A DNA stretch of 64,000 nucleotides from Escherichia coli (lineage in GTDB: Bacteria > Pseudomonadota > Gammaproteobacteria > Enterobacterales > Enterobacteriaceae), in the NCBI RefSeq assembly GCF_044324875.1, contig NZ_CP172185.1, one strand, 5' to 3'. A program made the position numbers and the translations under genes. Shown one piece after another: positions 26,574-31,481 of this stretch; the first letter of the stretch is position 1, and each line of letters opens with the position of its first letter. Below the pieces are notes generated by a model. The model made no database searches, was not told where the DNA came from, and saw nothing but the letters and a program-made list of their open reading frames with translations.

Positions 26574-28316
26574 ATGATAAAACCGACGTTTTTACGCCGG
26601 GTGGCCATTGCTGCTCTGCTCTCAGGAAGTTGTTTTAGCGCCGCCGCCGCGCCTCCTCCGCCACCTGTTTCTTATGGCGTGGAGGACGATGTCTTTCATC
26701 CGGTACGCGCGAAACAGGGGATGGTGGCGTCTGTAGATGCTACTGCCACTCAGGTGGGGGTGGATATCCTCAAGGAGGGTGGGAATGCCGTTGATGCCGC
26801 CGTGGCGGTGGGCTACGCGCTGGCGGTAACGCATCCGCAGGCAGGGAATCTGGGCGGTGGTGGTTTTATGCTGATCCGCTCGAAAAATGGCAATACCACC
26901 GCTATCGATTTCCGCGAAATGGCACCCGCCAAAGCGACCCGCGATATGTTCCTCGATGACCAGGGCAACCCGGACAGCAAAAAATCACTCACTTCGCATC
27001 TGGCCTCCGGTACGCCAGGTACGGTCGCAGGTTTCTCGCTGGCGCTGGAGAAGTACGGCACCATGCCGTTAAATAAAGTGGTGCAGCCGGCGTTTAAACT
27101 GGCACGCGATGGTTTTATCGTTAATGACGCGCTGGCTGACGATCTCAAAACCTACGGTAGCGAAGTGTTGCCGAATCACGAAAACAGCAAGGCTATCTTC
27201 TGGAAAGAGGGCGCGCCGCTGAAAAAGGGCGACAAGCTGGTGCAGGCGAACCTGGCAAAGAGCCTGGAGATGATTGCCGAAAACGGCCCGGACGAATTCT
27301 ACAAAGGCACGATAGCGGAACAGATTGCCCAGGAGATGCAGAAAAACGGTGGCTTGATCACTAAAGAAGATTTAGCGGCGTATAAAGCGGTCGAACGTAC
27401 ACCGATTAGCGGCGATTATCGCGGGTATCAGGTTTACTCCATGCCACCGCCATCTTCCGGCGGGATCCATATCGTACAAATCCTCAATATTCTGGAAAAC
27501 TTCGATATGAAGAAATACGGCTTTGGCAGCGCCGACGCGATGCAAATCATGGCAGAAGCTGAGAAATATGCCTACGCCGACCGCTCGGAATATCTTGGCG
27601 ACCCGGATTTTGTCAAAGTTCCGTGGCAGGCGCTGACCAATAAAGCCTATGCCAAATCTATTGCCGATCAAATCGATATCAATAAAGCGAAGCCATCCAG
27701 CGAAATTCGCCCCGGCAAGCTTGCGCCTTATGAGAGTAATCAAACTACCCATTACTCAGTGGTGGATAAAGACGGCAACGCGGTAGCGGTGACCTATACG
27801 CTGAACACCACCTTCGGGACGGGCATTGTCGCGGGCGAGAGCGGTATTCTGCTTAATAACCAGATGGATGATTTCTCCGCCAAACCTGGCGTACCGAACG
27901 TTTACGGGCTGGTGGGTGGTGACGCCAACGCGGTCGGGCCGAATAAACGCCCGCTGTCGTCGATGTCCCCAACCATTGTGGTGAAAGACGGTAAAACCTG
28001 GTTAGTGACTGGTAGCCCAGGCGGTAGCCGGATCATCACTACCGTGCTGCAAATGGTGGTGAACAGCATCGATTATGGTATGAATGTCGCCGAAGCGACC
28101 AATGCACCGCGTTTCCACCATCAGTGGTTGCCGGACGAACTGCGCGTCGAGAAAGGATTTAGCCCGGATACGCTCAAGCTGCTGGAAGAAAAAGGTCAGA
28201 AAGTAGCGCTGAAAGAGGCGATGGGCAGCACACAAAGCATTATGGTTGGGCCGGACGGCGAGTTGTACGGCGCATCCGATCCGCGCTCGGTGGATGATTT
28301 AACGGCGGGGTATTAA
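26574..28316 (+). CDS. ggt: gamma-glutamyltranspeptidase
   Basis: 580 aa with signal peptide and catalytic Thr motif region (NNQMDDFS...TTHYSV). Confidence 0.9.
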   Translation: MIKPTFLRRVAIAALLSGSCFSAAAAPPPPPVSYGVEDDVFHPVRAKQGMVASVDATATQVGVDILKEGGNAVDAAVAVGYALAVTHPQAGNLGGGGFMLIRSKNGNTTAIDFREMAPAKATRDMFLDDQGNPDSKKSLTSHLASGTPGTVAGFSLALEKYGTMPLNKVVQPAFKLARDGFIVNDALADDLKTYGSEVLPNHENSKAIFWKEGAPLKKGDKLVQANLAKSLEMIAENGPDEFYKGTIAEQIAQEMQKNGGLITKEDLAAYKAVERTPISGDYRGYQVYSMPPPSSGGIHIVQILNILENFDMKKYGFGSADAMQIMAEAEKYAYADRSEYLGDPDFVKVPWQALTNKAYAKSIADQIDINKAKPSSEIRPGKLAPYESNQTTHYSVVDKDGNAVAVTYTLNTTFGTGIVAGESGILLNNQMDDFSAKPGVPNVYGLVGGDANAVGPNKRPLSSMSPTIVVKDGKTWLVTGSPGGSRIITTVLQMVVNSIDYGMNVAEATNAPRFHHQWLPDELRVEKGFSPDTLKLLEEKGQKVALKEAMGSTQSIMVGPDGELYGASDPRSVDDLTAGY

Positions 28317-28353
28317 GGTTAGCGGCCCTCTTCGTGGGAAGAGGGCCGTATTG

Positions 28354-28638
28354 TCAGGGCAAGCCGAAGGTAGCCTTTTTTATTTCATAATCCTGTAGAT
28401 ATTCTTCCAGCGGCTTTGCCGTTCCAAGGGAATGAATTTCACCACTGTCTTTATCAATAATAAAAGGTGCGTTACCGGCTAAGCGCGCGGCCTCATCACC
28501 AGATTCAAGAAATTCTTGTGATTCGAAACAGAAATACCAGCCCTGGCTAAAACGTCCATGCAGAGTGATGACGACAGGGAGATCTGCATCATCAAGGTAA
28601 TGGTTCGCTTTCGCGAATGCGTCGTGATAAGTAATCAT
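28354..28638 (-). CDS. yrhB: YrhB (94-aa protein reported as a small heat-stable chaperone)
   Basis: ORF MITYHDAFAKANHYLDD... recognised from memory as YrhB. Confidence 0.7.
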   Translation of the reverse strand: MITYHDAFAKANHYLDDADLPVVITLHGRFSQGWYFCFESQEFLESGDEAARLAGNAPFIIDKDSGEIHSLGTAKPLEEYLQDYEIKKATFGLP

Positions 28639-29087
28639 AATTATAATAAATATTATTGTTGAACGTTATATTATTATTCTTGCGTTATACTTTGAGAAAA
28701 GGCGTGTTCATCTTCGTCAAAGATATTATTAAATGCTGGTTTTGAAAAAAGTTCATCGGATAATATACAGTCACGAAATAAGTATCTGCTAATATTTTGT
28801 GATTTCTTTTTCAGAACGTCGAACGGGATTTTCTTATTTAAGATATCAGAATCTTATGATTCGGGTGAAATTCTAACTAAATCAACATGTCACTAAAATC
28901 ATCATAGCCATTAGCTATTTCGGCTAAAATAGAGATTACATGTCTTCGGTCCATCTCACTTAAGGAGTGTAGTTCCGTTGTAAGTTTTTCCATAGCTTGC
29001 ATTGCTAAGTTTCGAACAAGGAATTTTCTGCTGGTAATCTCTAAAAAGATGGCATGGTTTACAATGATTTTTGTTATCTTTTGATTA

Positions 29088-29582
29088 TTATGAACAACTG
29101 TCCATGATTTCGTTTAAGAATGAAGAGAAATCACTAAACGAACTGAATATATTTTCGGTGCCAATATTATCTCTAATTTCAAAAAAGTTATTTTTAATGT
29201 CATAAGTAAATATTGAAATGCTATCATCCCCGATCACTAACCGTTCTTGTAGATCAGGGTTTATGAAATCATCATTATTTCTATAAAATTCATTTACGGT
29301 AAAAAGGTTTTTAACTGAAGGTTCTGGAATCGAGAGGCTAAATAATCGTAATCCATTAACTTCGAATCCATCCATTGCTCTTAAAAAAGTAAGATAATCA
29401 GGTTGATTCTTAAAAAGAATACTAACTTCATTACATAACTTCTCCAGGCAATTAGTTGAATTAGAATTAAATTCTATTTGGATTATACTTTCAATAAATG
29501 ATTCCTTGAGCGGTGCTTCAAATGGATAGTCTAAATCATTCATCATTTTTTTTAATTTATTTATTTGGGTTTTAGTCATCAT
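29088..29582 (-). CDS. yrhA: YrhA, putative immunity protein for the YhhZ nuclease toxin (intact in this sequence)
   Basis: 164-aa ORF whose start overlaps the yhhZ stop (ATGA); AT-rich; toxin/immunity-type arrangement. Confidence 0.65.
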   Translation of the reverse strand: MMTKTQINKLKKMMNDLDYPFEAPLKESFIESIIQIEFNSNSTNCLEKLCNEVSILFKNQPDYLTFLRAMDGFEVNGLRLFSLSIPEPSVKNLFTVNEFYRNNDDFINPDLQERLVIGDDSISIFTYDIKNNFFEIRDNIGTENIFSSFSDFSSFLNEIMDSCS

Positions 29583-30757
29583 TTTGTGGGTTCCATAATA
29601 TTTTTCATGGGAGGATAAATTGAGCCAGATGGAATGGCCCAGGGAGTGATTTTGCTTTCACCTACTAATATTCCCTTAGCTATTCGTGATTGCATGTTAG
29701 TAAAAACTTTATGATATGGTTCGTTTTCGATTAATACTAAATTTTCGAAATCATTAGTACCACCATCATCTAGAGATAGTTTATGGTGAACATTATAATT
29801 TAGAGGAACATTGCCCTTTCTCATTCTTAAAAGGTCTTCGGCGTTGAATCTTCCAGATGCTTCGGAGGTTTTTGCAAGTTTGATAAGAAAATTTTTTCTT
29901 ACAGTTTTATTAAACTCCTTTCGTAAGTTAGCTAAGTCTTTTGAAGGTCTCTTAATGTATATTATTTCTATTATGTCTATACCATCAAGAAGTTTTTGTT
30001 GACCTCTAAGTTTGCCTAAATAACTATTTATTTCTGTATATGTATCAACATTAGAACGCTTTGTTAAAAGAATAGATGCTGTTGCTATCGCTATGCCCGC
30101 TGTTTTTTCATTTAGTATTTGATCATAGCCTTTTATTGCATCTCCACCCAGTTTTTCCGCAGTATCTCTGAATCCTTCAATGTTCCCATTGTATACGCCA
30201 CCAGCAGCAAGTAGCCTGCCAATAGCTTTGCTGTTTAACGTTTTGAAACGATTATTTGTTTGGTTTTTTGAATTTGGTAAAAACAAACGGTTATAATTTT
30301 CAGGGAGTGCCAAATAGCTGAACTCGGTATTTGCGATAAGATGTTGACAGAGGATAAATTCATAACTAACAGTTATTGTTTCTGTATCCAGTTGATTTTC
30401 AATGATCTGATGATGAATAGCCGATAAAAAAGCGCCTCTTAGTTGTATATAATAATACTTTTCCCATCTACCAAATCTATTGATTCTATAAAAGTCAAAT
30501 TCCATAAATAATTGCTCATTATTGTTAATGGAATTAATAAGTAATGGAGTGCTTTTATCAATTAATTTACAAAATGTCATACCCTGTAACTGTGAACCAA
30601 GTCCCGTATTAGTAATTCTATTTGCGAGTGAGAATGTAAATATTTCATCCTCATGCCCACTCTGCCAGCGATTACCTATAGATTCAGTAGTCCCACAACC
30701 TGCGGAGATGTTTCCTTGTTGTTCTCCCGTTACTGTCAGGTAAACAATATTACTCAT
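29579..30757 (-). CDS. yhhZ: YhhZ: Hcp-domain protein with C-terminal HNH nuclease motif (Hcp-ET-type putative T6SS effector)
   Basis: N-terminal Hcp-like region; C-terminal NVHHKLSLDDGGTNDFENLVLIENEPYHKV HNH motif; low GC. Confidence 0.75.
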   Translation of the reverse strand: MSNIVYLTVTGEQQGNISAGCGTTESIGNRWQSGHEDEIFTFSLANRITNTGLGSQLQGMTFCKLIDKSTPLLINSINNNEQLFMEFDFYRINRFGRWEKYYYIQLRGAFLSAIHHQIIENQLDTETITVSYEFILCQHLIANTEFSYLALPENYNRLFLPNSKNQTNNRFKTLNSKAIGRLLAAGGVYNGNIEGFRDTAEKLGGDAIKGYDQILNEKTAGIAIATASILLTKRSNVDTYTEINSYLGKLRGQQKLLDGIDIIEIIYIKRPSKDLANLRKEFNKTVRKNFLIKLAKTSEASGRFNAEDLLRMRKGNVPLNYNVHHKLSLDDGGTNDFENLVLIENEPYHKVFTNMQSRIAKGILVGESKITPWAIPSGSIYPPMKNIMEPTK

Positions 30758-30959
30758 CCCTGAAAAGTCCTTTTATGGCATGCTATTTTATTAATGGCAC
30801 TATTATGCTTGTTAATTGTTATTTATTTACTCTAGGAAATTGTAGGCGTATATATTAATAATAAAATATTACACTTTAGGACGTAATTATGAGGTAAATC
30901 TCAATATATTTATTGGGCAAATAAATACATTAAAGGAAGATATGCCGATTTTGAATGAC

Positions 30960-30986
30960 GCCCTTTTTCCATCTCAGAAAAAGGGC
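30960..30986 (-). terminator. hairpin terminator downstream of yhhY
   Basis: Inverted repeat GCCCTTTTT...AAAAAGGGC. Confidence 0.5.
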
Positions 30987-30992
30987 ACTATC

Positions 30993-31481
30993 TTACTTCA
31001 CCCGTGCCATATAATACGCATCGACATATTCACCATTACGTAATGCGTACTTTTTGCCAGTCCCTTCAATCTCAAAGCCGAATTTTTTATAGACCTTAAT
31101 TGCTGGCGCGTTATCGACGAACACCGTTAGCTCAATACGATCTACCCGCAACCAGTTGTCGCACATTTCAATCATCTCTCGCATCAGGGCGCTGGCGACG
31201 CCGTGATTCTTCCAGCGGGCGTCGACACAGATACCAAAATCGGCAACATGACTGCGGCGCGGGCGTTGTTGCACGTCAATGGTGAGATGTCCTACGACGA
31301 TTCCATCAATACAGGCGACTAACTGCTTGATGCCGGGACGATCGGCGAGTCGCTCCTGCCACATATGATCGGAAGGATGAGGCACCTGTAGTGTGTTGCA
31401 ATACACCTCCGGCTGGGCGTGAATCTGCCTGATGGCCTCGTAATCGCGCGTTTCAGCATGGCGTATCACTATCTCACTCAT
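30993..31481 (-). CDS. yhhY: GNAT-family N-acetyltransferase YhhY
   Basis: Start at MSEIVIRHAETRDYEA inside ORF 30993..31559; GNAT motifs. Confidence 0.85.
   Translation of the reverse strand: MSEIVIRHAETRDYEAIRQIHAQPEVYCNTLQVPHPSDHMWQERLADRPGIKQLVACIDGIVVGHLTIDVQQRPRRSHVADFGICVDARWKNHGVASALMREMIEMCDNWLRVDRIELTVFVDNAPAIKVYKKFGFEIEGTGKKYALRNGEYVDAYYMARVK

Follow-up and report, generated by a model that had tools for sequence, protein, structure and literature searches.

The interval between yhhY and ggt in Escherichia coli is very probably a polymorphic type VI secretion system (T6SS) effector locus, with yhhZ as Hcp-ET1, whose tail holds orphan immunity genes left behind by swaps of the toxic tip. 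We studied it in a 64,000-nucleotide stretch of E. coli chromosome (contig NZ_CP172185.1 of assembly GCF_044324875.1; 'the window' below is this whole stretch), in which the minus strand carries yhhZ, its immunity gene yrhA, a spacer and yrhB. An original prediction had proposed that a 41-codon open reading frame (ORF) in the spacer, together with YrhB, could be orphan-immunity remnants downstream of the toxin/immunity pair. For the frame of the small ORF and for YrhB the analysis supports this: yrhB, the remnant that contains the small ORF (a yrhD allele) and a second remnant, that of an 85-aa gene, are each homologous to immunity-type genes of intact pairs elsewhere.

The swap itself is visible when alleles are compared. 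Between the yhhZ promoter and position 30101 (codon 219), the alleles of E. fergusonii and of an E. coli draft genome (L042) share 96.5 to 97% DNA identity with the window. Past that breakpoint no relation is left until 28642, which lies 4 nt ahead of the yrhB ATG; from there onward identity is 87 to 95%. Window positions 28643 to 30100 (1458 bp, comprising the HNH tip, yrhA and the spacer) stand in the place of a 490-bp Gln_amidase tip. A conserved 5' region, a conserved 3' immunity gene and sharp breakpoints are the marks of effector displacement, and from the breakpoints and the resumed homology it follows that yrhB is the stranded partner of the Gln_amidase tip.

The locus is laid out as follows. 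The plus strand carries ugpC, ugpQ, yhhA and ggt (26574-28316); after ggt, the minus strand carries yrhB (28354-28638), the spacer, yrhA (29088-29582), yhhZ/tssD (29579-30757) and yhhY. NZ_AP022298, 100% identical to the window over this region, is annotated in the order ggt, yrhB, yrhD (pseudogene), yrhA, tssD/yhhZ, yhhY. The spacer, described beforehand as AT-rich and of about 450 bp, measures 449 bp (28639-29087) with 30.7% G+C, as against 44.9% for yrhB and 54.6% for ggt. The features are, by position:

28324-28347, no strand assigned: G+C-rich hairpin between the convergent ggt and yrhB (read from the sequence).
28354-28638, minus strand: yrhB, an intact orphan Imm35 immunity gene, 94 aa (Pfam PF15567).
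28639-28676, minus strand: yrhB leader and recombination joint, 38 nt (breakpoints located by blastn with the E. fergusonii L020 and E. coli L042 alleles).
28677-28838, minus strand: remnant of the 85-aa gene, codons 1-54 (tblastn and family profile).
28841-29101, minus strand: remnant of a 78/84-aa immunity-type gene, containing yrhD (BLASTP and family profile).
28877-29002, minus strand: 41-codon ATG ORF, a truncated yrhD allele (sequence, RefSeq annotation and allele survey).
29088-29582, minus strand: yrhA, immunity gene (ETi1, YrhA/SMI1-KNR4-like) of the present HNH tip (NCBIfam NF038335).
29146-29175, minus strand: promoter-like site TAGAGA-18-TATATT within the yrhA 3' end (sequence scan).
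29579-30100, minus strand: variable C-terminal domain of yhhZ, aa 220-392, the toxic tip of Hcp-ET1 (HNH/His-Me finger; allele breakpoint 30101/30100).
30101-30757, minus strand: constant part of yhhZ, Hcp domain and linker, aa 1-219 (identity to the Hcp-Gln_amidase allele).

YhhZ contains an Hcp domain (PF05638, E 1.3e-12). Its constant Hcp and linker part is 71 to 77% identical in protein to that of three Hcp fusions from Citrobacter, the similarity reaching as far as about aa 229-251. Its C-terminus matches the Pfam HNH family with an E value of 0.005 (17.3 bits, below the gathering cutoff of 21.4), and YhhZ has been placed in group 32 of the His-Me finger proteins. YrhA matches NF038335 (E 3.9e-37), and its gene overlaps yhhZ by 4 nt. 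In nine other genera the HNH tip is always paired with a YrhA homolog, sometimes on another N-terminal carrier. One such carrier, PF26362 (DUF8093), bears the HNH tip and YrhA at other sites in Leclercia, Dryocola, Kluyvera, Atlantibacter, Enterobacter and Lelliottia (L028, L030, L033-L039). The HNH tips that it carries keep a linker equivalent to YhhZ aa ~152-220, which may represent a recombination or 'pre-toxin' module. In K-12 (L002 3918-4615), an IS1 interrupts yrhA, with a 9-bp target duplication, a known feature of the strain. K-12 consequently encodes the yhhZ HNH tip but no intact immunity gene against it.

Comparing the spacer across strains, as had been suggested, uncovered both yrhD alleles and swapped toxin/immunity alleles at the site. 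The ggt|yhhY interval (window 28353-30994) occurs as four E. coli alleles (L005, L006, L042). The first, hcp-HNH/yrhA/yrhD/yrhB, is present in 3743 of the 5426 complete genomes; the second has yrhB alone, 95 bp from yhhY; the third, O157-type, contains an unrelated 1819-bp segment with a DUF4225 gene and no yrhB, and departs from the window sequence at 28353; the fourth, hcp-Gln_amidase/yrhB, was seen in draft genomes only.

The same site is also variable in Citrobacter. In C. koseri (L046 2746-6847), tandem Hcp-toxin modules of 417 and 366 aa occupy the yhhY|ggt site, with an orphan Imm35 gene between them; of the sister strains, L045 has this Imm35 shortened to 75 aa, and in L043 and L044 it is not called. 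Citrobacter arrays end, beside ggt or after each module, in a conserved ORF of 81 to 87 aa (L018 6302-6553; L025 2581-2826; L026 5807-6070; L046 4601-4846 and 6593-6847), which is absent from E. coli. It has a weak EarA-like match (E 0.12), and may encode a winged-helix protein.

YrhB had been suspected of being a displaced immunity-type protein, and this is supported by its family and by the company of its orthologs. It matches Imm35 (PF15567) with 80.2 bits (cutoff 27.5; E 1.2e-22) over positions 1-85 of the 85-position profile. Imm35 is an alpha+beta fold with a conserved W and S/T, predicted to inhibit the papain-fold toxin Tox-PL1 (Zhang et al. 2012, PMC3482391). Among 20 YrhB homologs W34 is nearly invariant and T73 invariant, and the AlphaFold2 (AF2) model, with a predicted local distance difference test score (pLDDT) of 86, consists of a helix, then a beta-sheet, then a C-terminal helix. 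Homologs of 60 to 80% identity are found across Enterobacterales. In Pectobacterium and Yersinia kristensenii, the yrhB homolog overlaps the stop codon of a CdiA with a C-terminal PF15644 Gln_amidase domain ('papain fold toxin 1'). In E. fergusonii and C. portucalensis, the ortholog overlaps the stop of an Hcp-Gln_amidase of 383/386 aa at the very same yhhY|ggt site, and the draft genome L042, which has an E. coli backbone (flanks 95 to 97% identical to the window), shows the same Hcp-Gln_amidase/yrhB arrangement. Such coupling to Gln_amidase toxins extends over five genera and two delivery systems. YrhB thus resembles the Imm35 family in its above-threshold score, in the conserved W and S/T, and in orthologs that follow Tox-PL1/Gln_amidase toxins as predicted. 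It is unlike a typical Imm35 in that the yrhB of the window, and of about 75% of complete E. coli genomes, has no adjacent cognate toxin, and in that the E. coli literature describes a chaperone. Upstream of it in the window lie two remnants and yrhA, and no Tox-PL1/Gln_amidase (or Ntox40) toxin directly precedes it; the cognate Gln_amidase (Tox-PL1) type is absent from this region of the genome. We call yrhB an orphan because, unlike the orthologs just named, it has no adjacent toxin of this type in the window.

Full-length yrhB DNA is present in 4048 of the 5426 complete E. coli genomes, and its ratio of non-synonymous to synonymous polymorphism (pN/pS) of 0.21 denotes purifying selection. 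About three quarters of complete genomes keep the gene under such selection, and almost none of them has the matching toxin. This fits a retention of yrhB for protection against neighbours that still use the old toxin type. YrhB would then still protect E. coli from Tox-PL1 tips of neighbours, delivered by T6SS or by contact-dependent growth inhibition (CDI), probably by binding and blocking the papain-fold enzyme. A more specific proposal, which we find close to evenly balanced but lean slightly against, is that YrhB is a species-wide standing defence: the toxins would come from the T6SS of E. fergusonii, Citrobacter and rare E. coli and from CdiA of the Yersinia/Pectobacterium type, the protein would be a cystatin/PepSY-like inhibitor, and the chaperone-like behaviour reported for it would be a side effect of its great stability as a binding protein.

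Could YrhB instead be mainly a cytoplasmic heat-stable chaperone serving housekeeping or stress functions, its Imm35 ancestry being irrelevant today? Chaperone-like activity is reported in BL21(DE3) (Ahn et al. 2012, as far as related in PMC10723866), and cold-shock induction of yrhB is noted in the literature. The gene is moreover under purifying selection without a resident cognate toxin, and persists in strains that lack the whole hcp islet. However, about 25% of complete E. coli genomes, O157-type strains included, have no full-length yrhB, which would be odd for a housekeeping chaperone, and all close YrhB homologs examined lie in toxin-immunity loci or polyimmunity-like arrays, except in Enterobacter, where the gene stands alone. 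Chaperone and immunity roles are in any case not mutually exclusive, and we regard a mainly chaperone function as unlikely.

Two of these homologs merit description. In Limnobaculum xujianqingii (L012 8001-12956), two Imm35 copies are found within about 5 kb of small ORFs on the same strand, among them DUF596 and DUF6896/MafI2-like proteins, a polyimmunity-like run with no toxin in view. In Enterobacter (L022, and L023 6001-6273), the lone Imm35/YrhB homolog has a nitrate-reductase chaperone-like gene on one side and an epimerase gene on the other; no toxin lies near it, which makes it a further orphan, at an unrelated location.

The small ORF lies where it had been placed, on the minus strand at 28877-29002, with 41 codons from an ATG and a translation exactly as quoted. 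It was taken for unannotated, but it is already known as yrhD, which in K-12 encodes 51 aa (WP_001307436, Swiss-Prot P58037) and starts at the second ATG, window position 28993. In the window, codon 39, TAT in K-12, has become TAG (28877-28879), and the RefSeq annotation of a genome identical to the window lists 28880-28993 as a yrhD pseudogene 'missing C-terminus'. The stop-free stretch that was said to end in this ORF runs for 78 codons, from 29113 to 28880, and its first 26 nt lie inside the 3' end of yrhA. Its length is within chance: in 5000 dinucleotide-preserving shuffles of the spacer the longest run averaged 60 codons, and 11% of shuffles reached 78.

Among nine E. coli alleles, yrhD is of three types: intact, as in K-12; with TAG at codon 39, as in the window; and a third in which both ATGs are gone and a stop lies at codon 24. 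Among the 3802 complete genomes with the segment, assignment by identity band to the K-12 allele gives about 2798 genomes for the first type, 520 for the second and 484 for the third; about one carrier in four thus has yrhD disrupted, by one of two independent routes. Pairwise nucleotide diversity is 0.049 in yrhD, 0.053 to 0.062 in the flanking spacer and 0.018 in yrhA. The pN/pS is 2.5 for the 51 codons of yrhD and 1.1 for the whole 249-nt segment in the yrhD frame, as against 0.31 for yrhA and the 0.21 of yrhB, values that come from 9 alleles in about 3 haplogroups and reflect few independent events. Added to the disruptions, they give no sign that the yrhD frame is constrained.

What this frame descends from becomes apparent when it is extended upstream. 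The extended yrhD frame matches a protein of the 78/84-aa family from C. koseri with 42% identity over 59 aa, ungapped (BLASTP, E 1e-14). A profile built from four non-E. coli members, searched against the window as 1838 six-frame fragments of the 64 kb, has a sole match, on the minus strand at 29113-28880 (E 3.6e-15; next best E 1). The first codons of the remnant overlap the 3' end of yrhA, and its matches to the Rahnella and Pantoea homologs are nearly full length. The best-conserved motif of the family, KIIxxxAIFLEF, lies upstream of the annotated yrhD start, and in E. coli no ATG, GTG or TTG precedes it. At best, yrhD would encode the last two thirds of a protein that can no longer be made with its conserved N-terminus.

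Members of this family keep company with toxins. In C. koseri, at the same yhhY|ggt site, the 78-aa gene begins 2 nt past the stop of the 366-aa Hcp-toxin fusion. In Ralstonia solanacearum, a member directly follows an ORF 71% identical (over 121 aa) to the toxin tip of that fusion, the pair being located near an FHA gene. Rahnella keeps a 17-aa fragment of the toxin end upstream of its member, and in Pantoea dispersa the gene is found inside an array of orphan VENN/CdiA C-terminal toxin (CdiA-CT) fragments and immunity genes. Adjacency to one toxin domain is conserved across delivery contexts and taxa (C. koseri Hcp, Ralstonia), and the family, which has no Pfam counterpart, apparently reaches Streptomyces. 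Judged from these sequence relationships, the yrhD frame is supported as a putative remnant of an immunity-type gene, and in Citrobacter the 78-aa protein would neutralise the Hcp toxin that precedes it.

The tip of the C. koseri 366-aa fusion (L046 5191-6291) matches an ORF on the R. solanacearum megaplasmid (L049 3622-3984), beside IS5. It has a wide host range, though no Pfam family, and carries a D...IDRK pattern that is reminiscent of PD-(D/E)xK nucleases.

An alternative for this part of the spacer is that yrhD works as a small-protein gene in its own right, as annotated in K-12, the match to the Citrobacter family then marking it as a working short paralog. The window does contain a yrhD ATG ORF, the 51-codon ORF is intact and nearly invariant in some 2800 genomes (PMC3575317), and an RpoD site was found upstream of it by systematic evolution of ligands by exponential enrichment (SELEX). 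This invariance is nevertheless that of one haplotype, and about 1000 genomes carry the two independent disruptions. Inspection of the sequence reveals no Shine-Dalgarno-like sequence ahead of either yrhD ATG. The strongest motif of the family falls ahead of the start that is annotated, and no canonical start codon precedes it. Moreover, yrhD is as diverse as the DNA around it and has a pN/pS of 1 or more. The literature searched reports neither expression nor function of yrhD. The conserved frame, start codon, ribosome-binding site and purifying selection that characterise functional small proteins are not found in yrhD, and we consider this alternative very improbable; yrhD itself most likely has no function. 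A YrhA-YrhD fusion (P0119, 246 aa; also P0125, P0130 and P0155) is encoded by some sequences from E. coli or metagenomes, in which the end of yrhA differs by 1 nt and so reads on into the stop-free yrhD frame; this could be real variation or a sequencing error. Phage and plasmid collections queried with the yrhD peptide or DNA gave just mislabelled E. coli chromosomes and noise.

Nor is the spacer 'otherwise non-coding', as it had been called: the whole of it is composed of two gene remnants, recognised by protein-level homologies and family profiles, and the second had been missed altogether. Positions 28838-28677 (minus strand) match codons 1-54 of an 85-aa ORF with 41.5% identity over 53 aa (tblastn E 2e-10 locally, and E 1e-6 against 7.3 Gb), and the profile of the 85-aa family has its sole match in the window on the minus strand at 28853-28677 (E 1.7e-10). 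In all nine E. coli alleles (9/9), the start codon has become AAT and the last 31 codons are gone; K-12 has an additional in-frame stop at codon 13. Since the yrhD stop (28840-28838 in K-12) overlaps the first codon of this remnant, the spacer is fully accounted for except for 34 nt (28643-28676). In C. koseri, the 85-aa gene begins 2 nt past the stop of the 417-aa Hcp fusion, whose tip is unclassified. It is presumably the cognate immunity gene of that fusion, and its product would neutralise the Hcp toxin preceding it; in C. youngae it follows yrhA, as an orphan. The protein shows no relation to Pfam families, to PDB structures or to the Imm35 profile.

These two homologies also bear on the idea that the spacer is merely AT-rich, horizontally acquired non-coding DNA, an H-NS 'promoter island' that supplies the yrhB promoter and contains ORFs by chance. 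Its 30.7% G+C, a stop-free run not significant against shuffles, the listing of the yhhZ/yrhA region among promoter islands with H-NS binding, and the lack of Rfam or repeat features in the spacer would all agree with it. Two specific and colinear homologies (E 3.6e-15 and 1.7e-10), each the sole match in the 64-kb window, nonetheless cover nearly the whole spacer, and intact relatives of both remnants hold the same position in Citrobacter. A present-day role as yrhB promoter is compatible with a remnant origin, and we give almost no credence to a spacer devoid of gene ancestry.

Several other candidates were discarded. A single frameshifted gene of about 110 aa, made of yrhD and the frame downstream, is ruled out by homologies to two different genes. 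Searches with the fused peptide returned E. coli only, which for yrhD were false negatives, as the query lacked the N-terminal motif upstream of the annotated Met. The spacer is not paralogous to YrhA, YrhB or YhhZ (nothing better than E 0.1). As for the toxin-tip fragments that had been expected downstream, none was found when the spacer was compared with the Gln_amidase, Hcp-X and Hcp-Y tips; in particular, for a displaced Gln_amidase tip upstream of yrhB, all CdiA and Hcp Gln_amidase matches had E > 1. Finally, P0123 (686 aa, E 2.4e-4) is cohesin-like and repetitive, and four of its repeats add up to the score.

Displacement at an Hcp-fused effector locus, our preferred reading, would operate as follows. 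The Hcp domain and linker (aa 1-219) are constant, and the toxic C-terminal tip and its immunity gene would be swapped by recombination. An exchange within the conserved Hcp/linker part would import a new tip with its immunity gene, and earlier immunity genes would stay downstream. Successive displacements of this kind would have produced the minus-strand order Hcp-HNH yhhZ, yrhA, 78/84-aa remnant, 85-aa remnant and intact yrhB, in which two of the three orphans, the 78/84-aa and 85-aa genes, have decayed and yrhB is intact.

Some observations weigh against this reading or limit it. The array could have arrived as one block. For the 85-aa protein, the immunity role is deduced from gene position, seen adjacent to a toxin in Citrobacter only, and the single-sequence AF2 model is unusable (pLDDT 43). 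A DNA-level search found the E. fergusonii-type Gln_amidase tip in 0 of the 5426 complete E. coli genomes. The chaperone-like activity in BL21(DE3) is, as far as PMC10723866 relates it from Ahn et al. 2012, the sole published activity of YrhB. The K-12 allele retains an intact 51-codon yrhD ORF with a reported RNA polymerase binding site upstream, and some expression of yrhD may occur in K-12-type strains.

Arrays of orphan immunity genes left by sequential effector displacement are described in the auxiliary T6SS clusters of Vibrio cholerae (Kirchberger et al. 2017, PMC5361080). As in those clusters, the E. coli locus has a conserved 5' part, an incoming pair replaces the effector, the old immunity gene stays on the 3' side in the same orientation, and relatives have intact pairs whose immunity genes are homologs of the orphans. 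Unlike them, the E. coli tip is fused to Hcp, so that exchange takes place inside one ORF (codon 219/220), as in CdiA-CT and Rhs-CT; the locus is not beside a T6SS cluster, and two of its three orphans are decayed. A likeness also exists with the arrays of displaced tip/immunity cassettes known as orphan cdiA-CT/cdiI and rhs-CT/rhsI, the 78-aa family being found in such an array in P. dispersa, but in contrast to these modules no toxin-tip fragment survives beside any of the three E. coli orphans.

The Hcp-ET effectors of Enterobacteriaceae, as presented in the available parts of two reviews (PMC6730261, PMC6099711), range from Hcp-ET1, an HNH-DNase with ETi1, to Hcp-ET5, papain-like with ETi5; the Hcp-ETs of Ma et al. 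2017 are also treated in the accessible portion of a preprint (bioRxiv 10.1101/2024.03.05.583533). On these descriptions, yhhZ and yrhA match Hcp-ET1/ETi1, in that an orphan hcp ends in an HNH tip and is followed by an immunity gene; the locus is the same in O104:H4, and the Hcp-Gln_amidase/YrhB allele fits the 'papain-like peptidase' clan. Neither orphan immunity genes nor yrhB or yrhD behind Hcp-ET1 are mentioned in those parts of the reviews and the preprint, the primary article of Ma et al. 2017 being outside this comparison. That YrhB belongs to Imm35 is already recorded in Pfam, yrhD is already annotated, and orphan immunity arrays are known. In the literature searched, we found no account of yrhB as the displaced partner of an Hcp-glutamine deamidase at this site, of yrhD as an immunity-type remnant paired with a defined tip family, or of the second remnant.

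At the edges of the array, the promoter-like site within yrhA (29146-29175) agrees with a K-12 RpoD genomic-SELEX site with H-NS upstream of yrhD (PMC3946193); in the promoter and terminator scan of the region, counts were no higher than in shuffles. The hairpin between ggt and yrhB has a perfect 10-bp stem, GGCCCTCTTC-GTGG-GAAGAGGGCC, and no T-run, and was for that reason not flagged by the terminator scan; as read from its letters, it is likely a bidirectional terminator marking the outer edge of the variable region. A scan for Rfam families and repeats gave just short repeats of the kind that arise by chance and, within yrhA, a snoRNA match below threshold.

For E. coli, this analysis offers an evolutionary and mechanistic reading of two K-12 'y-genes', which should be useful for work on the y-ome. 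yrhD is better treated as an immunity-gene remnant than as a small-protein gene, with consequences for small-protein catalogues and for annotation. For yrhB, an orphan immunity role against a defined toxin type can now be put to the test: E. fergusonii and Citrobacter offer the donor toxins, the toxin-immunity pairs lend themselves to direct assay, and the annotation of yrhB as a chaperone can be checked directly. The 78/84-aa and 85-aa families would be immunity-type families without a Pfam model, the first of which reaches Ralstonia and apparently Streptomyces. More generally, with at least four toxin tips and their immunity genes across Escherichia and Citrobacter, the yhhY|ggt site appears to preserve, within a short natural stretch, a record of how T6SS effectors fused to Hcp have exchanged their tips.

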